Source: Candidatus Doudnabacteria bacterium
GTDB lineage: Bacteria > Patescibacteriota > Doudnabacteria > UBA920 > O2-02-FULL-48-8
NCBI GenBank assembly: GCA_037200925.1
Contig: JBBCGO010000001.1
Location: forward strand, 447,698 to 511,697
Reading direction: 5' to 3'
Length of the DNA stretch: 64,000 bases
In this document: positions 13,298-49,830 of the stretch, in pieces
Layout of the letters: each line of letters opens with the position of its first letter
Numbering within the stretch: position 1 is the first letter of the stretch
Notes under the pieces: model-generated
The model's input: only the letters and a program-made list of their open reading frames with translations
The model's database searches: none
Told to the model about the DNA's origin: nothing
Translations under genes and position numbers: made by a program

Positions 13298-13372
13298 TGG
13301 GGTGCCAGACGAGAATCGAACTCGCGTGACCGCTGCCACAGAGCGGCGTTCTACCATTGAACTACTGGCACC
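13298..13372 (-). tRNA. tRNA-His (anticodon GTG) with encoded G-1 and CCA
   Basis: Hand-folded cloverleaf: 8-bp acceptor including G-1:C73. Anticodon stem CCGCU/AGCGG with loop CUGUGGC. T-loop TTCGATT. 3' CCA encoded. Confidence 0.85.
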
Positions 13373-13450: not shown

Positions 13451-13525
13451 GTCAGCGGCCGAGCGGAATCGGACCCACGTGACAGCTGCCACAGAGCTGC
13501 GTTCTACCATTGAACTACGGGCACC
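13451..13525 (-). pseudogene. Degenerate tRNA-His(GTG)-like copy. The 5' ~47 nt are near-identical to the intact tRNA-His. The 3' half is divergent with a poor T-arm and acceptor and no CCA.
   Basis: Alignment with 13298..13372: 3 substitutions in the 5' 47 nt versus about 9 in the 3' 25 nt. The T-stem pairs only 3/5. Confidence 0.5.
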
Positions 13526-36692: not shown

Positions 36693-37550
36693 TGTATTCT
36701 CCTGTTTATAGGTAAGCTTTCGGGATCAGGATTAATTATTCATATGAGACAATCAATCCCTAACCTATAAAACGAACCTGTAAACATGTTTTGATTAATT
36801 TTTTATCCCGATATACGGGAATATTTTGTCCCGATATACGGGAACATGGAACTAAACGCCTGTCCGTCTAACGGGACATTTAAAGAAAACAAAGACCGAC
36901 CATCCAGCACCAGTTTTCGGTTATAATTACTTGGTTTAGACTGCTTCGCTTCGCTCGCAGATTCGAATTTGCGAGGAAGCCGCAAGGCTGACGAAGCAAT
37001 CTATAATTATGTTAATTATTTAAGCCAAAAACTGGGGCTGGAACAGTGCCTTATTTAGGCAATTTTAATTCCATTTGTTAAGACGCACGTTTGCATAGTC
37101 AGTTACAGATAAAGTGTTGATAACACCATATTGCAAATGACTTTGCAAACATCGATGAATTTCGCTGGGGTTAGCCAATATTCGCAAAATAAAACAACCG
37201 CGATCTATTGAACCGTGGCAGTTATAATGCTTATTATTCGGCTGACTTGTAAGAGATTTTCATCGAGTACAAGCATTATGGATTAAAAAAACATTTTTGT
37301 CAAGCAAAAATAATGCTAACTTATCGCATCTGCAAGCAACCGTAGGTTGCGCGGCAGTCTAAATCAATTGTCATTCCGGACCCGATCCGGAATCCAGAAA
37401 TAAAGCTTTATGCTGGATCCTGAAACAAGTTCAGGATGACATATTCGGGATGACATAAAATTGATTGCTTTGTCGTGGACAATTGGCTGACTTCTCGCAA
37501 ATTCAAACGTTTTCTGTTAAAATTGCATTTGAACTAAGCGGGATTTTTTT

Positions 37551-41266: not shown

Positions 41267-41465
41267 AAAATTATTGTAGTCAGCCGATTTATCGGCTATT
41301 AATTAATTATAAAAATGCTATAAACAATTCGCGAGTCCCAAAACCGCATCTGCGAGCGACCGCAATTCCTAAGCCTAGTTTAGGCGGTTGCGTGGCAGTC
41401 TAATCTAAGGATTAGATTGCTTCGTCGCTGCGCTCCTTGCAAATGCGTCATATTCACGTGGAATT

Positions 41466-41762
41466 CTAATCCAAGTCTTCATAAAGATCTTTCCAGTCTT
41501 TGTTAAGACTTTCTATTAATTTTACTTTGTCATTTCGAGACCCTGCTTTGATTTGTTTTTCTCGATTAAGTGCTGACTCTAAATCACTATAAACTTCATA
41601 ATAAATTAATTTGTTGATATTATATCGCTTTGTAAAACCTTCGACCAGTTTTTGTTTATGCTCCCATATCCGTTCTTTCAAACTCTTACCGGTAGAACCG
41701 GTATATAAAACAGTATTTGTATAATTTGTCATTATGTAAACAAACGATAACTTGTCTTGCAT
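41466..41762 (-). CDS. GIY-YIG nuclease family protein (YhbQ-like)
   Basis: VYIMTN...LYTGSTG...R...H. Confidence 0.8.
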   Translation of the reverse strand: MQDKLSFVYIMTNYTNTVLYTGSTGKSLKERIWEHKQKLVEGFTKRYNINKLIYYEVYSDLESALNREKQIKAGSRNDKVKLIESLNKDWKDLYEDLD

Positions 41763-41873
41763 AGATTAGATTGCTTCGGAGCAATGCTCCTCGCAAATTC
41801 ACCTAAATAATTCTGACAGGGATAAGATTTTTCGAACATAAAAGCGCCTTATGCTTTAGGCGCTTCTTTTTCT

Positions 41874-42335
41874 TTATCTTCTTTTGTTTCTTTCTCCCGG
41901 GCTTCCCCTGCCAGCTTCTCTTCTTCCGGCAGCTGCTTGTAGAGGGTTCCCATCACTCCGTTGATGAACTTGCCGCTGCTCTCCCCCCCCGAAAGCCTTG
42001 CCCAGCTCCACCGCCTCATTGATCACCACTTTCGGCGGCACCTCTTTGCTGAACATCAGCTCGTAGATCCCCAGTCTCAGGATGTTCCGGTCAATGACCG
42101 TGATCTGCTCCAGCGGCCACTCCGGGGCCGTTTTGACGATTATCTTGTCAATGTCCTCCAAGTGCTTTTCCACTCCGTTTATCAGCTCAAAAATAAAAGC
42201 GGGATCATCGAGCCCGGGCGCAAACTGTTTGACGTTGAATTCCGTGATCGCCAAAAGCGGCCTTACGCGCTCGTTGAAGTCCCACTCATATAAAGATTGC
42301 ATTGCCACCGTGCGGGATAAATGCCTGTTGGCCAT
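41874..42335 (-). CDS. nusB: Transcription antitermination factor NusB. The 3' end is probably frameshifted at a C8/G8 homopolymer (41983-41990).
   Basis: RHLSRTVAMQSLYEWDF. The alternative frame after the G-run gives the canonical NusB tail GGESSGKFINGVMGTLYKQL. Confidence 0.8.
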   Translation of the reverse strand: MANRHLSRTVAMQSLYEWDFNERVRPLLAITEFNVKQFAPGLDDPAFIFELINGVEKHLEDIDKIIVKTAPEWPLEQITVIDRNILRLGIYELMFSKEVPPKVVINEAVELGKAFGGGEQRQVHQRSDGNPLQAAAGRREAGRGSPGERNKRR

Positions 42336-42336
42336 A

Positions 42337-42531
42337 CTACTTCTTTGCTTTCTTGACTTTGACCTTGATCACTTGGCGGCCTTTGTAGTAACCGCAGTTC
42401 TTGCAAACTTCATGGGGCAAAGTTGGAAAATTGCAATTCTTGCAAACCGACAATGCGGATGCTTTCAGATGATCGTGCGAGCGTCTCTGATTCCGGCCCG
42501 ACCGGGTTTTATGCTTCTTTGGAACTGCCAT
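42337..42531 (-). CDS. rpmF: 50S ribosomal protein L32
   Basis: MAVPKKHKTRSGRNQRRSH plus C..C....C..C. Confidence 0.85.
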   Translation of the reverse strand: MAVPKKHKTRSGRNQRRSHDHLKASALSVCKNCNFPTLPHEVCKNCGYYKGRQVIKVKVKKAKK

Positions 42532-42596
42532 ATTTTTTCGTTGAATTATTTAAAATTACTATAGATGTATAACATAAAAGACCATTAGGGTCAAAT

Positions 42597-42630
42597 AAAA
42601 CCCCACACCAAAAATTTTGGTGTGGGGTTA
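42597..42630. terminator. Strong palindromic hairpin (terminator-like, functional on either strand)
   Basis: aaccccacaccaaaaattttggtgtggggtt followed by A/T runs. Confidence 0.5.
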
Positions 42631-43291
42631 AAAAAATTCTCAAATATCTGTCGGTGAACAGGAGTTTCTGACATTTTGTAAACAAAATTTCAGAATTCAC
42701 CGACAGATAACTGAGAACTTTGGGAAACGGGCGGGGAATGACAGTCGATGTTGACTGACTTACTCATTCCCCTTCTTGCGCGTAACTTTTGGCTTAACCC
42801 ACCAATCCAGCACAAGGCTGGCTATCAAAGCGGGGATGCCGAAGGCCAAAATAACATTGGCTAACTCCTTCATATTGGTGCCTCCAAGTAGTTTTTGAAG
42901 CGGGGCTGGGATCCCGCTTCTTTTGGTGTTTGCAACTACTTCTGATCCTCCGGTAAAAAATCTTCAAACCAGAGATAGATGCGGTCGAGCCAAATGGTCA
43001 TTCGGCGGTAGATGCGCGAAGACGTGAATCTGGGCAGACGAACGACGACGATTGTGATCATGCTCCACTCCGTCAGAAACTAAGTTTCCGGGTTTCCGAA
43101 CGCCGAGTGTACGAGCGCCGCCGGTTCGGGAGTATTCTAACCCTTTTCTCTCTTGCGTTCAAGCAGGAGGAACAGGGTAAAATTACTTTCCGATCCTCTG
43201 GATCCAAATTGATTTGGGTCCAGGGGAAGGGAGCAGGCTGGAAAACGGGTTCAAGCCTGCTGTCTTGGGGTTTGTTTTGGCGGGTTGCATG

Positions 43292-43495
43292 TCACATCTC
43301 CAGCTGGTCGAGCCAGTCCTGAAGGTTCCGCTCAGCCCGCGCCTTTATCTGGCATAGCCGGCATTCCGCGATGTGGTCAAACATGAGACGCTTGACCTCG
43401 CCAAATGCCGAGCGGACGGGCTTGCCGGTCCTTACTGATTCGACATAGTCGGTCACCTCGTCGTCCGTCATGCACCGCTCGCCATGGTATTCCAT
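43292..43495 (-). CDS. Hypothetical small protein
   Basis: ORF only. GC-rich. Confidence 0.35.
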   Translation of the reverse strand: MEYHGERCMTDDEVTDYVESVRTGKPVRSAFGEVKRLMFDHIAECRLCQIKARAERNLQDWLDQLEM

Positions 43496-43506
43496 CTCTC
43501 ACCTCA

Positions 43507-43683
43507 AGGTCTGCTCAGGCAGACATTGGCCAACTGCACGGGAAGTTTGTTGCATAATTCTTCCTTGTGCGCGGCCAGATACCCCAGGCCGACGGCGGCG
43601 ATACCTACGGCAATAAAAATGATCATGATGACCAGTAATTGCCTATCGGTGAGAGGCTTCGGGTCTTCTTCATCATTCGTCAT
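43507..43683 (-). CDS. Hypothetical small membrane protein (58 aa, manual)
   Basis: MTNDEEDPKPLTDRQLLVIMIIFIAVGIAAVGLGYLAAHKEELCNKLPVQLANVCLSRP. Confidence 0.3.
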
Positions 43684-43686
43684 GAT

Positions 43687-43971
43687 TCACCTCTTCACGG
43701 GTTGCGAATCGAGCTCGTTTTGAACCTTGCGGCGGCGGATATTGCAACCGGCGCACGGTTTCGCCCTGTCATCCCCATTCAAGTGCACTAATATCCGGGC
43801 GTTGTCTTGCATCGAGAAACCAGTAGCGTCGTCGAAGGTCCTCACACCACAAAATACCTCAATCTCCGCCAATGTGAGACACTTGCCGCCATAGACCATC
43901 TTCATAAATCCTCCTAAAACTTTCCGTTTTTTCCGTACAACTCCTCTGGATCCAAATCGCTTTGGGTCCAA
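43687..43971 (-). CDS. Hypothetical protein (probable start at MKMVYGG)
   Basis: ORF only. Confidence 0.35.
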   Translation of the reverse strand: MDPKRFGSRGVVRKKRKVLGGFMKMVYGGKCLTLAEIEVFCGVRTFDDATGFSMQDNARILVHLNGDDRAKPCAGCNIRRRKVQNELDSQPVKR

Positions 43972-44059
43972 GGGAATGGGGATGTCTTTCTTGGGAAGAC
44001 ATCCGGTTAAAATTCATGGCTCAAGACCATGCGCAAGCGCTATGCCTGCGGTTTCCTCC

Positions 44060-44428
44060 TTAATCCTTGTTGGCCACTCGAGTCCAATTGTTCGAGCCGC
44101 AGTTTGTGCAGGTCAGCCAGCCCTTTTTCCAAATGAAAGGTTTTTTGGACTTACATTTGGGGTTGAAGCACTTCCGCAAATCTTCGGAAAGGGGCTCCAG
44201 GGATTTGATCTCCAATGCGCGAATGAGCTGAGGCTCTGAGACTACCTCATGCGCTTCGTCAGAGGAAAAAAAGACGTAATATAGCTCTATCCCCGCGAAG
44301 GAAGTAATCGCCTTGTTCGCCCGGGCCATTACAATAACATCGCCTGCTTCCTCGGTGCCATCGAGCAAGACACAATTGTATTGTGCCTGCTCGTCCCATT
44401 TAATTTCCACATGTGCCTCACGCGCCAT
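44060..44428 (-). CDS. Hypothetical protein with a C-terminal Cys cluster (zinc ribbon-like)
   Basis: CFNPKCKSKK...CTNCGSNNW. Confidence 0.4.
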   Translation of the reverse strand: MAREAHVEIKWDEQAQYNCVLLDGTEEAGDVIVMARANKAITSFAGIELYYVFFSSDEAHEVVSEPQLIRALEIKSLEPLSEDLRKCFNPKCKSKKPFIWKKGWLTCTNCGSNNWTRVANKD

Positions 44429-44465
44429 ATGCGCTAACTGAGCTGTTTACAAAAAATTGCTGACC

Positions 44466-44666
44466 TTAGAATTTGATTTTCGCCAGGATAATGCCCCACA
44501 ACATGAGGATCAAAGCTAAGATCATCATGATACCGAGCATCTCCGGGTAAAGCGGCAAGCCCGTGATCATCAGGAACAATCCGCCTGCACTCTTGTAGAA
44601 CACGAGCATCAACACGACGTAGACAGGCAATGTGACAAGAACGTAGCCGATCGTTTTACGAACCAT
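44466..44666 (-). CDS. Small membrane protein
   Basis: Two TM helices. Confidence 0.4.
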   Translation of the reverse strand: MVRKTIGYVLVTLPVYVVLMLVFYKSAGGLFLMITGLPLYPEMLGIMMILALILMLWGIILAKIKF

Positions 44667-45535
44667 GTGGACCCTCGTGCTTGGGAAACTCTTTTGCGGG
44701 AGCTTGATTGCTTGCCCACAACTCTGAATGCTTAGTGAACTTTACGGGGCAAATAGATATCCGTGTTACAACTTTTAAGTATTCAGAATAGTGGGAGCAA
44801 TTCCTTTGTTTTCACAATTGAATGTACTTAACTGTTATAGGTTCGAGACTGATATTCAGTGATTCTCTCTTAACTTTAGTTAACTACACTCGCATTCTAG
44901 AAACAAATTTATTCAATTTTTTCTTTCGTTTTGTTCTTACATTAAGAAACAGGATTCCGATCCTCTGAACTCCATTCTCCGCGAAATTAATGGCGGATGA
45001 AGTACAAGGGAAGAGAGAACTGTTGGCGGGCAGTTCTTTTGGTGCTCTATTGAGCAACCTAATGTTTATTAATCCGGCCGCCAAGCCGTTTTTTTTTGTG
45101 AACTCCTTTTATTGTTGCGGGCTGCGGATGAGCATCGCGATGGCACAAATGGCCAAGGCCAGCACGATTCCGGTGAGCGCTATGACGTGCGTGCCGTTCT
45201 GTTCCAAGAACAGCCATTGAAACATTCTATCGTTCATTCTGTACTTCTTTCTTGCTGTGACAAGGGACCCATATTACCTTACAAAGATAATGATCACTAC
45301 GTCTGCAAACAATACGATGGCAAATATCACCATGGCACAATTGAGCGAAAGGTTGACGTACCCATCAATTTTAGTCCGATTCAGCTTCATGTCACCTTCT
45401 TGACTTAAACTAGGAAAGAACTCGGGAATTATTTCCCTTCCAAAATCTTCTAGCTTTAGAAAACTTAGGAAGAGGCGAGACGGTTATTGACTGTCTCGCA
45501 AACTTCGCACACACGAACTTCCTCCTGTAAATTAT

Positions 45536-46078
45536 CTATCCGCGCATCGCATGAGTCGACCAGTACTCGATTGCTATTGCGAATTGCTCGGCGGTATACC
45601 AGTCAGAATATGTCCCACCGGGTAGGCCCAGCATGTCGCGAGCCATGGCCACCGGATGCATGGGTACCCGTTCTTCGGCTGGACATGCGTCGAATGAAAT
45701 GATCTCCCACTCGTGATCGCCGACGGGCCCGTGATCTTTATCTAGAGAATCGCGGTGACGGATAACGATATCCACCACACCCTTAGCCGGCATCTTCACG
45801 CCGCCGAGTGCGGTAACTACGAGAAGTTTACTCTCACCATCTCGGCGCGCTTCGAAAGTTGCCTTTAAAGGCGTTTCGTCCGTTACTTCGACGACACTTG
45901 TGAAAAACCCTTTTGACGAAACCGGGACATCCTTCTCTCCTTCGCGATACCCGTTAGAAGCGGATTTGAAGCGTTCTTCGACCATAGCGATGAGAGTCTC
46001 CCAACCGCCTTCAAAATGCGAGAACCGCGATTCCGGAGTCTGTCTTTTCACGAATTCTCCGATGCCGATCAATTTCAT
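45536..46078 (-). CDS. Hypothetical protein
   Basis: 180-aa ORF flanked by 60-nt direct repeats. Confidence 0.4.
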   Translation of the reverse strand: MKLIGIGEFVKRQTPESRFSHFEGGWETLIAMVEERFKSASNGYREGEKDVPVSSKGFFTSVVEVTDETPLKATFEARRDGESKLLVVTALGGVKMPAKGVVDIVIRHRDSLDKDHGPVGDHEWEIISFDACPAEERVPMHPVAMARDMLGLPGGTYSDWYTAEQFAIAIEYWSTHAMRG

Positions 46079-46233
46079 ATCACCCTCACTATTTAGCTAG
46101 GAGCCAAAGAACTCGGGAATTATTTCCCTTCCAAAATCTTCTAGCTTTAGAAAACTTAGGAAGAGGCAGGCTTGAAAACGGGTTCAAGCCTGCTGTCTTT
46201 GTTTTGGCGGGATTCCCGATCGATGCACGGGAG

Positions 46234-46521
46234 CTAACGGTTTTGAGTCTGATCGAGAAAGAGATAGGTGCGAAAGTCATCCGACAAGCGCACGTATGGT
46301 GACAGCTTGCGCGCCAACTCTTCAACGTTATCGATTCGCGGCGGCGTGGCACCGATCCAGAAGATCGTGCCGTCCTTCTCTTCGCCGTTCTCCTCGTAGA
46401 TGTCGATGCGCTCGCCGTCTTCATCGATCATGTAGATCTGGCCGAAATACGACTGCAGCGGCGGATCCCATCCGACCAGCGCCTCGGTCTTGCTGTCTAT
46501 CTTCAAGATATACTGGGACAT
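46234..46521 (-). CDS. Hypothetical acidic protein
   Basis: ORF only. Confidence 0.35.
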   Translation of the reverse strand: MSQYILKIDSKTEALVGWDPPLQSYFGQIYMIDEDGERIDIYEENGEEKDGTIFWIGATPPRIDNVEELARKLSPYVRLSDDFRTYLFLDQTQNR

Positions 46522-46982
46522 TCTAACTCCTCCTATTTACCGCAGATTGACTTCATCGCGGCGTAGACCGATTGCTCCTGCTTCGTATCGAGCGAACGAA
46601 GCGGAAGCAACGTCGGCTTCTGGCGGTAGAACTTCACCGCCTGACAGATCACAAGCCACCCGAGAGCGAAGACGATAAATGCTGTCATGCTGACCTCTTT
46701 TTGAATTGAGTATTTTGTTTCGGCGATACTGGGTGCTATCAGGCAAGTAACGGGCTAAAGTTTATTTGACCCCCTTAAACCTGATAACAGCCCAACATTC
46801 GCGGAAACAAATGAGAAAATTACTAATTTCTAATATCTAATTTTTAATGTTCTCTTCTTTGAATCCAAATTGTTTTTAGATTCAAGGGAGAGAGAACTGT
46901 TGGCGCAGTTCGTTGTGGTTGCTACTGATGAGCAACCGGTGTGTAGAACTTGCGGCCGCCAAGCCGTTTGTGACTTCCTCCG

Positions 46983-47429
46983 TTAACCTCGAGTAGCTTG
47001 TCTCTGTCGCTGCATATACCGCTCTTTTCGGTACCGCCGACTTGTCCAAGCAAGCTGAAATTCAACTCGGTTGCTCACTCGAACGACATGGTATACGGCT
47101 TTGAGTTCCAATGCATCATCCTTTCGTCTCAATGCGTGGTTCTCAAAAACCCCGAACTCTTGGTGACCGTTAACCGCGGCCCAGAGGCAGTGTGACGTCT
47201 CGGCTGTCGTGTACGTAAATCCATCATGGTGTTCCGCGAGATACTCGCCGAATGCTTCGGTGGTTTTGAACACGACGCGATCCTTAATGATCTTAACGTC
47301 ATCGCCGTGGATTTCCCGAACGGCCTTGATCTGGCCGAGCGACATCTTCTGACGAGAAACCCAATAAATCTTCTCCATCTGAACCTCCCCACCTTTTAGG
47401 TGAGAGAAACGAACTGTCATTACTTCCAC
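46983..47429 (-). CDS. Hypothetical protein (probable start at MEKIYWV)
   Basis: ORF only. Confidence 0.35.
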   Translation of the reverse strand: MEVMTVRFSHLKGGEVQMEKIYWVSRQKMSLGQIKAVREIHGDDVKIIKDRVVFKTTEAFGEYLAEHHDGFTYTTAETSHCLWAAVNGHQEFGVFENHALRRKDDALELKAVYHVVRVSNRVEFQLAWTSRRYRKERYMQRQRQATRG

Positions 47430-47740
47430 GATTCTGGGTGCTTAAGCATGATTGCTTGAGGACAAATGTTGATTTTTCCTGCTAAATCAAGATAAGCCCC
47501 CAGAATGGTGGAAACAAAAAATGGTCCCGCAGGACCATTAAATTGCTCATACTTACTCGGTCCTGAACGAATAAGTACTATTATTCATATTGGTAAGGTA
47601 ATAGTCAATTGTACACTTAAATGCCGGTTTTGTCAAGCCTTATACCCAGCTTTATGTCAATAAAGGCTAATATTAGCCAAAAAAGAAATTATTAAAGGCT
47701 TAGATTGGCCAAAAAGGTTATGCTGGTATGGTTTGATTAT

Positions 47741-47835
47741 AATAATCGAGGATCGAATTTGCGAGGAGCGTTAGCGACGAAGCAATCTAATCATTGGAAT
47801 AGATTGCCGCGTCGGCCTACGGCCTCCTCGCAAAT
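47741..47835. repeat. About 95-nt nested palindromic element downstream of groEL, member of the gattagattgcttcg/cctcgcaaat repeat family
   Basis: Outer IR cgaatttgcgaggagcg/cgctcctcgcaaat-like. Inner IR gcgacgaagcaatcta/tagattgccgcgtcg. Confidence 0.6.
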
Positions 47836-47894
47836 ACGAAAAAGACTAGGCCTAAACCTAATCTTTTCTATTTTCTACTTACTATTTTCTTCTC

Positions 47895-49830
<1,936 letters not shown>

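Follow-up and report, generated by a model that had tools for sequence, protein, structure and literature searches.

Organization of the island

The region described here belongs to the genome of a Candidatus Doudnabacteria bacterium (CPR), an identification that rests in part on MAG GCA_037975565.1, and was flagged within a 64,000-nt stretch of DNA, hereafter the window. It is a lineage-specific variable island of 5.4 kb with conserved ends, located between groESL and rpmF-nusB, such that its neighbors encode GroES/EL, L32, and NusB. All of its genes lie on the minus strand and just 57% of the DNA is coding (Table 1). As originally predicted, the ORFs are short (13 in total, 37–180 aa) and several encode membrane mini-proteins: six of them (37–66 aa) are hydrophobic, as defined by a 19-residue window with a Kyte-Doolittle hydropathy of at least 1.9. 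A purine-rich Shine-Dalgarno-like sequence precedes most of the ORFs, with g6 and g8 as the exceptions, and the g8 product is an orphan among 5.8 billion proteins. The composition was also said to fluctuate; this is true locally (GC of 0.40 to 0.58 per 400-nt window), whereas overall GC (0.475, vs. 0.464 for the whole window), third-position GC, and codon composition resemble those of the host.

The island opens with a palindrome, GGCTAATATTAGCC, then a sigma-70 promoter and S, a leader or small RNA that carries a terminator; a long hairpin together with a terminator closes it. The palindrome and TTGACAA are conserved in the related loci L015, L017, L018, and L034, and in five genomes the promoter form of the lineage, TTGACA-17-TAnnnT, is kept at this start. 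S is conserved in L015 and L034, with compensatory changes in four of 20 pairs; the loop of its first hairpin is UUCAGGACC, in which CAGGACC is complementary to the 5′ arm (GGUCCUG) of the S terminator. The island end is conserved in L014, L015, L017, and L018. Because both S and the island end bear U-tract terminators, the lineage evidently uses canonical ones.

Table 1. Coordinates of genes, repeats, and structured elements in the window
Feature	Position	Strand	Description
Variable island	42532-47894	-	Between groEL and rpmF/nusB
groEL	47895-49553		Flank of island
rpmF	42337-42531		Flank of island, with nusB beside
Island-start promoter	47636-47608	-	TTGACA-17-TACAAT; within promoter/palindrome stretch 47608-47678
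S	47503-47607	-	Leader or small RNA; hairpin 1, then canonical intrinsic terminator
S intrinsic terminator	47539-47520 plus U-tract	-	After hairpin 1
H1	47414-47520	-	~40 nt before g1; 85.8 bits (E=2e-20) with model R1
g1	46983-47381	-	132 aa, soluble
U2	46883-46969	-	HP1 position, right after g1 stop; "130-nt unit" copy 2
D1c	46847-46897	.	Abuts U2; third, degenerate ctctggatcc copy; ambiguous in orientation, 35.4 bits (+), 33.5 bits (-)
H2	46709-46813	-	~25-30 nt upstream of g2; model R1 77 bits
g2	46533-46688	-	51 aa, hydrophobic
g3	46234-46521	-	95 aa; widespread uncharacterized family of ~90 aa
HP1, type D4	46166-46199	-	After g3; "hairpin unit" copy 2
D2 cassette copy 2	46106-46167	-	Upstream of g4; 43.9 bits
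g4	45536-46078	-	180 aa, DUF3228
HP1, unique sequence	45476-45498	-	After g4
D2 cassette copy 1	45415-45476	-	Upstream of g5; 100% identical to copy 2
g5	45274-45390	-	38 aa, hydrophobic mini-protein
g6	45109-45237	-	42 aa, hydrophobic mini-protein
U1	45005-45091	-	HP1 position after g6; "130-nt unit" copy 1
Weak D-type hairpin, tentative	44953-45016	-	After U1; 17.9 bits, E=0.19
H3	44702-44806	-	~45 nt upstream of g7; divergent H hairpin
g7	44466-44666	-	66 aa, hydrophobic
g8	44060-44428	-	122 aa, CxxC...CxxC at C-terminus
HP1, unique sequence	43980-44004	-	After g8, then D1b
D1b	43938-43980	-	Between g8 and g9; 36.7 bits
g9	43687-43908	-	73 aa
g10	43504-43683	-	59 aa, hydrophobic
g11	43292-43495	-	67 aa, HxxxCxxC motif
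HP1, type D4	43233-43266	-	After g11, then D1a
D1a	43186-43232	-	After D4; 40.5 bits
Sigma-70-like promoter	43134-43162	-	TTGAAC-17-TAGAAT; downstream of D1a, upstream of g12
g12	42936-43061	-	41 aa; questionable gene
g13	42760-42873	-	37 aa, hydrophobic, basic tail
Island end	42599-42721	-	~90-nt hairpin 42633-42721 and canonical terminator 42599-42629, upstream of rpmF
Repeat pair 1	45415-45476 / 46106-46167		62 nt, 100% identity
Pair 1, extended	45376-45476 / 46065-46167		105 nt, 86%, E=1e-22
Repeat pair 2	43225-43284 / 46159-46211		85% over 60 nt, E=3e-9; hairpin core 34 nt at 97%
Repeat pair 3	43194-43231 / 43942-43979		89% over 38 nt
Repeat pair 4	45005-45091 / 46883-46969		80% over ~90 nt, E=1e-10

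Repeats and their modular arrangement

The four direct repeat pairs of the original prediction were recovered by repeat search and blastn self-comparison, with small shifts in coordinates, and all are intergenic. The ctctggatcc pair lies about 6–8 nt from where it had been placed, and the unit described as 130 nt long is a genuine repeat of only about 90 nt. Repeats are confined to 42.5–47.9 kb of the window, and blastn and covariance-model searches found no further copy of the four pairs in the remaining 58 kb; none of the repeats matches an Rfam family. The extended match of pair 1 takes in the ribosome-binding site and first five codons of two genes. The ctctggatcc motif has a third, degenerate copy (46855–46892, 63%) in which both arms have changed and the stem is kept.

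These repeats fall into classes of structured element. HP1 is a GC-rich hairpin found after genes, variable in sequence and followed by CCUCUUCC or UCCCUUCC in place of a U-tract. D is a hairpin abutting HP1, with the conserved base CCCTTCC...GGAAGGGA or ...CCAGAGGA. Two of the four repeats, the 60-nt unit and the ctctggatcc motif, are D subtypes (D2 and D1, respectively); another is an HP1 of type D4, and the last, U, is a long and complex hairpin that occupies the HP1 position. D2 copy 2 comprises a D hairpin (46122–46167), a small GGGAA/UUCCC hairpin, and GUUCUUUG, while the weak D-type hairpin after U1 ends in CAGAGGATCGGAA, as D1a does. A further element, H, is a long leader hairpin of 95–105 nt with a 23-bp stem; its three copies in the window went unnoticed in the original prediction.

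On the gene-sense strand, the elements follow a common grammar: gene, HP1, D, AT-rich spacer, H, ribosome-binding site, and next gene, with the spacer and H present in some cases only. H lies 30–58 nt upstream of the start codon in eight of ten cases. Individual modules are reassorted within this order: D4 is joined to D2 at 46159–46167 and to D1 at 43225–43233, and of the two D2 copies, one is partnered by D4 and one by another HP1. The repeats had been interpreted as reused promoter cassettes. A promoter scan detected no sigma-70-like promoter inside any repeated unit, though the lineage uses TTGACA-17-TAnnnT, and the units are instead stem-loops that show covariation when read on the gene-sense strand. 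The reading as promoter cassettes is therefore not supported, and the HP1 elements differ from canonical terminators.

Comparison with related genomes

The groEL-rpmF gap measures 4.6–7 kb in each of four related genomes (7.06 kb in L015, 4.6 kb in L017, and 4.8 kb in L018) and holds different genes each time. A tblastn search of the 13 island proteins against the L015, L017, and L018 gaps returned nothing at E ≤ 1e-3, and an all-ORF blastp search gave one weak link to the window (g2 with an L014 ORF) and five equally weak links among the islands of the relatives. This pattern probably reflects gene replacement between species (NusB identity 78–91%), with extreme divergence of tiny proteins as a possible alternative. 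Only noncoding stretches of 60–170 nt can be aligned between islands, and the noncoding elements common to the window and its relatives are the start promoter with S, HP1, D, and H. The idea of a hypervariable region with reused cassettes is therefore supported, in that genes differ among the relatives' gaps, the same repeat families recur at gene boundaries, and no conserved, repeat-free version was found in the relatives.

Thirteen D hairpins in five genomes share one layout, and the abutting HP1 was written out for nine of them. The L034 fragment, which contains a relative of D4, reads promoter-S-H-gene-D-gene-D4-D-H. Two homologs of g1 occur elsewhere: one adjoins tig/clpP, and the other, in L044, is followed by HP1, D, and a conserved D2 tail. 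H3 is 88% identical to its L014 and L015 copies although both flanks are unrelated; for comparison, identity is 75% for groEL and, for rpmF-nusB, 74–78% in L015 and 79–84% in L014. L034, L044, and these islands account for all model hits in 414 kb of sampled DNA, apart from marginal matches (E 0.01–0.6) in L016 and L027; these aside, the remaining 58 kb of the window, the phage contigs, and the more distant CPR loci gave no match to the element models. Restriction of the elements to the island thus applies to the sampled DNA, which includes 64 kb of the 964-kb contig.

Evidence for folding of the gene-sense strand

In the alignment of 13 D sequences, 87.4% of cells are paired (36–69% in slid controls) and eight of 14 pairs show compensatory changes; the covariation score of 0.569, vs. 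0.281 for shuffles, was reached by none of 500. For H (six sequences), the corresponding values are 86.4% (38–53% in slid controls) and 11 of 33 pairs, with at most one of 500 shuffles reaching the observed value on four of five measures; on the fifth, the number of further pair types, 13 of 500 did so. Because the comparison is limited to five genomes and two fragments, all of them related, part of this covariation signal could be inherited.

G·U pairs place the D and H folds on the gene-sense strand, with 30 against 5 on the antisense strand for D and 22 against 5 for H. Paired cells drop to 73.6% (D) and 77.8% (H) on the antisense strand, and the folding energies of the modules add up to −402.6 kcal/mol in sense vs. 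−347.5 kcal/mol in antisense. The three D1-type copies of the window fold better on the plus strand (D1a and D1b by 6–9 kcal/mol), and U1 and U2 have more G·U pairs there; the strand call is accordingly clear for each family as a whole, whereas some individual copies in the window leave it ambiguous.

Proposed function and alternative explanations

We favor, with confidence about evenly divided, the reading that the repeats are conserved RNA stem-loop modules that serve in intercistronic processing, stability, or termination and double as recombination joints. A few polycistronic RNAs would cover the island and would be punctuated between cistrons by HP1-D-H, with HP1 capping the upstream message at its 3′ end and D and H making up the 5′ leader of the message that follows. 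Such sites would serve for endonucleolytic processing, for partial termination, or for the control of stability, and for H, with its stem of 23 bp, RNase III would be the obvious candidate nuclease. Since unrelated genes are bordered by the same modules, short patches of homology are available, and recombination there would exchange, duplicate, or remove gene modules. Both the turnover of genes and the scattered direct repeats would be explained in this way, the modules presumably being preserved in a fast-changing island as one set of intervening genes gives way to another.

It is possible, albeit unlikely, that the hairpin clusters are instead unconventional terminators or insulators with no processing role, the gene groups being promoted from AT-rich spacers. 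The hairpins start right after stop codons, H2 and H3 are preceded by AT-rich spacers of 40–140 nt, a promoter-like site lies downstream of D1a, and hairpin clusters have been put forward as intrinsic terminators (PMC8355165). The hairpins nevertheless have no U-tract in an island that also contains canonical U-tract terminators. D2 is separated from the next start codon by only about 55 nt, in which no promoter-like site occurs, and HP1, D, H, and the ribosome-binding site are contiguous in L015, L017, and L034, leaving no room for a promoter.

We regard as rather improbable that the hairpins are DNA-level recombination sites, folding as single-stranded DNA for cassette exchange, with RNA structure incidental. 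Conserved structure despite variable sequence, placement at gene boundaries, small ORFs in one orientation behind one conserved promoter, elements that persist while gene content turns over, and module reassortment exactly at the HP1|D junction would all suit such sites, and folded DNA tolerates G·T pairs too. Neither a tyrosine nor a serine recombinase was found, however, either in the gene calls for the 20.5-kb L001 stretch or in a Pfam search of the larger ORFs out to about 15 kb on either side. As read from the sequence, the hairpin ends lack the RYYYAAC...GTTRRRY boxes of integron attC sites. In integrons, attC recombines as the bottom strand, whereas the gene-sense strand folds here, and H keeps a fixed distance from start codons, as befits a 5′ UTR element.

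Selfish hairpin repeats (REP/BIME-, BOX-, or Correia-like MITEs) in tolerant intergenic DNA, with no role in the island, are very unlikely: a modular mosaic of hairpins found only between genes, with D2 copies whose full identity suggests recent copying, has that appearance, but the elements occupy one locus in one orientation relative to genes in the 414 kb sampled, show no terminal inverted repeats or target duplications, keep a fixed order and start-codon distance, and in H3 are conserved beyond groEL. More improbable still is that the repeats are plus-strand antisense RNAs, the antitoxins of type I toxin-antitoxin pairs with the six hydrophobic mini-proteins as toxins. On the plus strand, D4 is trailed by a T-rich stretch and is scored as a terminator, folding is slightly better for U and the D1 copies, and a terminator-like site (42897–42920) lies beyond g13; the promoter scan yielded no convincing plus-strand promoters, however, the T-rich stretch is not kept in the L034 copy of D4 or at other HP1 sites, the family-wide G·U counts favor the gene-sense strand, and the units lie between genes without overlapping them. 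The originally predicted degraded prophage or plasmid segment with repeated early-gene promoter cassettes is the least probable and already largely refuted: the DUF3228 gene g4 has its closest relatives (46–56% identity) on phage contigs, within long one-directional arrays of small orphan genes (one such contig, L006, has a head protein and a connector), and a 41.7% relative in Microcystis phage MaAM05, but it is the sole island gene with phage relatives, no island protein matches PHROG at E < 0.01 (two marginal matches, E 0.02–0.04, are to function-unknown families) or, g4 aside, the DUF3228-bearing phage contigs, integrase, structural genes, and an att-like boundary are absent from the island, 50,697 phage and 72,556 plasmid records contain no DNA match, phage contigs have no H or D elements, the repeats contain no promoters, third-position GC is host-like, and conservation of the island's start and end extends over five genomes.

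Considered as RNA stem-loop modules, the reading that we prefer, and although they are devoid of the promoter, the repeated elements of the island are alike to the PeSLs of phages.

Gene Content of the groEL–rpmF Island

The island (42532–47894) is carried on the 964-kb contig of a Candidatus Doudnabacteria MAG, where it lies between groES-groEL on one side and rpmF-nusB on the other, in a neighbourhood that includes genes for HisRS, FtsZ, a type IV pilus ATPase, HU, and a GIY-YIG protein. Its 13 ORFs (g1–g13; 37–180 aa) are all encoded on the minus strand and make up 57% of the island; most are preceded by a purine-rich, Shine-Dalgarno-like sequence (g6 and g8 being the exceptions), and both GC and third-position GC are similar to those of groEL and nusB. 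The products of g2, g5, g6, g7, g10, and g13 are hydrophobic, with a 19-residue hydropathy window of 1.9–3.1. A second assembly carrying the island, GCA_015689235.1, has an identical gene order, and a further locus (L003) matches the window exactly; because it is identical and ends inside a D2 repeat (one of the hairpins described below), L003 is uninformative on variation. A plus-strand ORF of 76 aa, called as a gene in GCA_015689235.1, overlaps g6 and U1 (a copy of the structured element U) and is probably spurious because it crosses that element.

In the flanking DNA, the nusB product has an Arg/Gly-rich tail after approximately residue 117. Relatives align to residues 1–117 only, the continuation in one of them (L014) matches in another frame, and GCA_015689235.1 calls a 161-aa NusB; a frameshift or an assembly error may affect the 3' end of this gene. 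Elsewhere in the window, two tRNA-His(GTG) genes stand in tandem approximately 80 nt apart, and the second, which scores 38.5 vs. 63.9 bits, may be a decaying duplicate.

The original prediction had considered a degraded prophage, a reading to which one gene lends itself. The g4 product is a DUF3228 protein, the sole Pfam match in the island, and its nearest relatives (46–56% identity) sit among small unknown genes that form long arrays in one direction; one contig with such a relative also encodes a phage head protein and a connector, and Microcystis phage MaAM05 holds another (41.7% identity). When all island proteins were searched by tblastn against the phage-like DUF3228 contigs, g4 alone matched, and a DUF3228 protein scan of IMG/VR returned no match. 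Ten island proteins gave no PHROG match at E < 0.01 (two were marginal, at E 0.02–0.04, to families of unknown function), and at the DNA level the island resembled nothing in the phage or plasmid collections. Recombinase domains were absent from the called genes of a 20.5-kb stretch reaching 8.2 kb past one island edge and 7 kb past the other, and from the larger ORFs tested against Pfam to approximately 15 kb on either side. With no integrase, structural, or lysis genes, no att-like boundaries, no set of phage-family matches, and a host-like GC3, the island is not a prophage remnant, and phage ancestry extends to one gene at most. As for the other products, g8 is an orphan among 5.8 billion proteins; for g1, two homologues exist, one of them beside tig-clpP in a cellular setting; and g3 falls in a widespread but unnamed family of proteins of approximately 90 aa, for which profile searches of Pfam (30 members) and PDB gave neither name nor structure. 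NCBIfam returned no match for the island proteins, and PADLOC returned one weak match under its 0.01 limit, that of g11 to PDC-M10A (E = 0.005, 14.6 bits).

A NusB-anchored scan, limited to one genome per species, identified four close relatives, in which the groEL–rpmF gap measures 7.06 kb (L015), 4.6 kb (L017), and 4.8 kb (L018); the L014 contig ends 1.5 kb into the gap. A tblastn search of the relatives' gaps with the 13 island proteins gave no match, and in an all-ORF blastp comparison a window ORF was linked weakly just once (g2, to an ORF of L014), alongside five equally weak links among the relatives' islands. Small membrane proteins and HxxxCxxC mini-proteins are also encoded in these gaps, and the islands have in common noncoding stretches of 60–170 nt. 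The proposal of a hypervariable region with reused cassettes thus holds, in that the gap proteins differ in relatives and the noncoding elements are common. The H-x3-C-x2-C mini-proteins, recognized by eye and without Pfam support, occur in every island version with no detectable sequence homology, and their motif resembles the zinc finger of anti-sigma factors.

Noncoding Element Families

Four pairs of direct repeats had been claimed for the region, and all are borne out by sequence reading, a repeat finder, and low-stringency blastn of 42.5–47.9 kb against the whole window; the unit put at approximately 130 nt is indeed paired, at a length of approximately 90 nt rather than 130 nt. Every repeat is intergenic, and blastn found no further copies in the remaining 58 kb of the window.

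Positions of noncoding elements and other features (window coordinates unless a locus is named; elements are given gene-sense, i.e., on the window minus strand)
Feature	Position	Strand	Description
Island start	47503–47678	(-)	Strong promoter TTGACA-17-TACAAT, upstream palindrome, ~100-nt two-hairpin RNA, U-tract terminator
H copies (model R1)	47414–47520; 46709–46813; 44702–44806 (weaker)	(-)	Long leader hairpin
Repeat pair, D2	45415–45476 / 46106–46167	(-)	62 nt, 100% identity; extended match 105 nt at 86%, E = 1e-22
Repeat pair, D4	43225–43284 / 46159–46211	(-)	60-nt pair, 85% identity
Repeat pair, D1	43194–43231 / 43942–43979	(-)	38-nt pair, 89% identity; degenerate third copy at 46855–46892
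Repeat pair	45005–45091 / 46883–46969	(-)	~90 nt, 80% identity
D4–D2 junction	46159–46167	(-)	
D4–D1 junction	43225–43233	(-)	
Island end	42633–42721; 42599–42629	(-)	~90-nt hairpin; canonical intrinsic terminator; just upstream of rpmF
H-x3-C-x2-C mini-proteins	g11, 43292–43495; L014, 429–587; L017, 7095–7253 and 7451–7879; L018, 9151–9564	g11 (-)	By eye
76-aa ORF	44990–45220	(+)	Overlaps U1 and g6
nusB	41874–42335	(-)	
GIY-YIG nuclease gene	41466–41762	(-)	98 aa
GIY-YIG-flanking repeats	41391–41447; 41757–41800		~45–55 nt, bracketing the gene
Further copies of this repeat	47754–47811; 36962–37004		First at groEL-side island border
Tandem tRNA-His(GTG)	13298–13371; 13453–13525	(-)	

At the island start, the palindrome GGCTwAnnnTwAGCC followed by TTGACAA-17-TAnnnT is present in all five of the genomes compared. 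In three of them the promoter is followed by the start leader S, whose window copy is conserved in L015 and in L034, a soil metagenome contig. S consists of a hairpin with the loop UUCAGGACC and then a canonical U-tract terminator, and the loop sequence CAGGACC is complementary to the terminator 5' arm GGUCCUG; judged from its sequence, this two-hairpin RNA has the appearance of an attenuator or of a small RNA gene.

The long leader hairpin H (95–105 nt) has a covarying 23-bp basal stem, a conserved apex, and a conserved TTGGGCAC/GTACCCA segment holding a C·A mismatch, and in 8 of 10 cases it lies 30–58 nt upstream of a start codon. Its covariance model, R1, matched two to four times in each relative's island and three times in L034; across approximately 400 kb, no other matches were found except marginal ones in two distant CPR loci (L027 and L016; E 0.01–0.6), and the contig encoding P0015 had none. 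An exact-pattern scan of IMG/VR for H gave 0 matches, and a metagenome pattern scan gave nine loci, with L034 alone genuine.

HP1 is a GC hairpin of variable sequence that directly follows genes and abuts D, a hairpin whose base reads CCCTTCC...GGAAGGGA or ...CCAGAGGA; nine of the thirteen D hairpins assembled have an abutting HP1. The predicted 60-nt unit and ctctggatcc motif are the D subtypes D2 and D1, respectively, and the predicted hairpin unit is D4, an HP1 type that was found in L034 too. After g1 and g6, the HP1 position is taken by the ~90-nt element U, and D-type hairpins come next. The model of D, R2, recovers every known copy as well as additional ones. When three further loci (L042, L044, and L045) were searched with R2, D was found in L044 alone, immediately 3' of a g1 homologue and with the D2 tail GGGAA..TTCCC..GTTCTTTG kept. 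Exact-pattern scans of IMG/VR gave 0 matches for the D1 palindrome and four chance 16-mer matches for the U core.

The hairpin and terminator at the island end are kept in all four relatives, with stem sequence varying on both arms, and could mark the end of the island, act as a leader of rpmF, or be a small RNA. In Rfam, tRNAs alone reach threshold in the window; the best island E-values (0.2–5) all fall far under gathering scores. The soil contig (1533 nt, reverse strand) comes from another organism and displays the full element grammar within 1.5 kb: promoter, S, H, a 53-aa membrane protein, D, a 69-aa membrane protein, D4, D, H, and H. No ORF is evident behind the two H copies that lie near the end of this contig.

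RNA Structure, Strand, and Conservation

Both D and H are kept as structures. For D, 87.4% of cells are paired (36–69% in slid controls) and 8 of 14 pairs are compensatory; for H, the corresponding values are 86.4% (38–53%) and 11 of 33. For each family, 0 of 500 shuffles reach the covariation score. Counts of G·U pairs favour the gene-sense over the opposite strand (30 vs. 5 for D, 22 vs. 5 for H), as does the summed folding energy (-402.6 vs. -347.5 kcal/mol). The window D1 copies and U are exceptions that fold slightly better on the plus strand, so the strand is secure for the families and not for each copy. A reading of D1, D4, and U as plus-strand small RNAs was initially favoured by the G·U pairs of the window copies and by the T-rich tail of D4; it was dropped because the relatives show a gene-sense orientation and their T-tails are not conserved. 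Type I toxin-antitoxin modules were likewise rejected: the island does encode small hydrophobic ORFs that are candidate toxins by sequence, but no antisense RNA gene accompanies them, the units have no plus-strand promoters and lie between ORFs, and the gene-sense fold is favoured.

H3 (the copy at 44702–44806) is 88% identical to the L014 and L015 copies, with unrelated sequence on either side; by comparison, identity between the window and L015 is 75% in groEL and 74–78% in rpmF-nusB, and that between the window and L014 is 79–84% in rpmF-nusB. The noncoding hairpins match or exceed groEL in conservation, and the protein-coding genes between them have apparently all been replaced. The elements also reassort: within the window, D4 joins D2 at one HP1–D junction and D1 at another, and D2 is preceded by D4 in one copy and by a different HP1 in the other. 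The two D2 cores are 100% identical, with the duplication extending into the first five codons, and elements shared by the window and L015 occur in different order. The repeats are very probably structured elements of the sense strand, conserved and under selection, that belong to a variable island specific to this lineage.

A separate repeat family brackets the GIY-YIG nuclease gene. In L014 and L015 the GIY-YIG match lies between rpmF and nusB, and the window gene is instead downstream of nusB; this difference in position points to a mobile, selfish gene accompanied by a repeat family of its own.

Proposed Mode of Action and Significance

The sense-strand stem-loops of the island follow a conserved grammar. 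That the repeats are promoter cassettes, as originally proposed, is contradicted by the absence of a promoter from them, though the lineage uses TTGACA-17-TAnnnT elsewhere: a promoter scan found none within D1, D2, D4, or U, and inspection by eye found none in D2 or the H apex. Between the end of D2 and the start codon, a distance of approximately 55 nt, there is no -35/-10 match, and in several relatives HP1, D, H, and the RBS are contiguous, leaving no space for promoters. HP1 is not followed by a U-tract, which the S and island-end terminators do have.

We favour a reading in which the island would be transcribed as a few polycistronic RNAs, possibly attenuated at the S leader. HP1 would protect the 3' ends of upstream messages and D/H would serve as 5' leaders of downstream messages, with cleavage or partial termination between them (RNase III being a candidate for H), and the shared modules would double as homology patches for module exchange. 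We put the chances of this combined reading at about even.

A bolder alternative would make the groEL–rpmF gap a chromosomal site dedicated to expressing exchangeable small-gene modules, an integron-integrase-free cassette system with D/H as the exchange joints. D/H would then work through homology-driven or single-strand-hairpin-directed recombination and also provide ready-made RNA signals, such that captured genes (phage-type DUF3228, or membrane mini-proteins in host/phage interactions) could be plugged in and expressed immediately. We consider this improbable.

CPR bacteria have tiny genomes whose regulation is mostly unknown, and to our knowledge hardly any cis-acting RNA elements are on record for the group. 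The island adds new structured-RNA families, four or five in number (S, H, D, D4-type HP1, and the end hairpin), whose definition is good enough for modelling and searching. Should the modules be processing or stability signals, they would show how operons of acquired mini-genes are expressed in CPR organisms; as recombination joints, they would represent a new route of gene capture.

Comparison With Known Systems

Early genes of phage T7 are separated by RNase III processing hairpins, and polycistronic operons contain intercistronic stem-loops; in such cases a 3' hairpin shields the upstream message and a structured leader opens the downstream one. The island likewise has repeated, related hairpins between small genes of what is probably one transcription unit, and the predicted H stem (~23 bp, with one conserved mismatch) resembles an RNase III substrate that may be cleaved. 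The sequences are unrelated, however, and the island elements are kept across genomes while the genes change.

Integrons are defined by an adjacent IntI tyrosine recombinase, attI, and Pc, and by attC sites with R'' (RYYYAAC) and R' (GTTRRRY) boxes, of which the bottom strand recombines. As in integron arrays, co-oriented small ORFs lie behind one conserved promoter, content varies among close relatives, and, as with attC, units are bounded by an imperfect hairpin whose structure is kept better than its sequence. In contrast, no integrase was found in the examined parts of the 64-kb window, and there are no R''/R' core sites: H ends TTTGTTTCC...GGAAGCAAA and D ends CCCTTCC...GGAAGGGA, neither of which matches the attC boxes, and H as an attC site was rejected on its end sequences. 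Unlike attC, moreover, the elements fold on the gene-sense strand, more than one hairpin occurs per junction, and H behaves as a 5' UTR element.

Correia repeat enclosed elements of Neisseria are intergenic, hairpin-forming, and co-transcribed with genes, and RNase III can cleave or protect them and thereby alter adjacent gene expression (PMC2649163). The island repeats resemble these and the REP/BIME elements of enterobacteria as intergenic hairpin repeats that are probably co-transcribed with genes, and share with BIMEs a mosaic modular build. Correia, REP, and BIME elements are nevertheless dispersed genome-wide in hundreds of copies and both orientations (MITE-like repeats such as BOX likewise being multicopy and dispersed), whereas in the sampled DNA the island elements occupy one locus in one orientation; all R1 and R2 matches in the 64-kb window and the relatives' 15–20-kb loci fall within the groEL–rpmF gap, gene-sense.

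The closest parallel is the PeSL (promoter-early stem-loop) known from hyperplastic regions of T4-type phages, a strong sigma-70-like promoter coupled to an effective terminator stem-loop (PMC2839356, PMC4122927). In both systems, small conserved stem-loop cassettes flank small, mostly orphan, non-essential genes at boundary positions of a plastic region, a given cassette adjoins unrelated genes across related genomes, and the cassettes are plausible recombination substrates for modular shuffling. The island units differ in having no promoter-like site and two or three consecutive hairpins, which are stable but without the U-tract seen on the island's canonical terminators, and in residing on a cellular CPR chromosome rather than in phage genomes. 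Lacking the defining promoter and lying on a cellular replicon, the island is not a PeSL; by analogy, it appears to work like one in evolution, and the locus can be seen as the cellular equivalent of an idea from phages, in which the shuffling of gene modules is driven by regulatory modules held in common.
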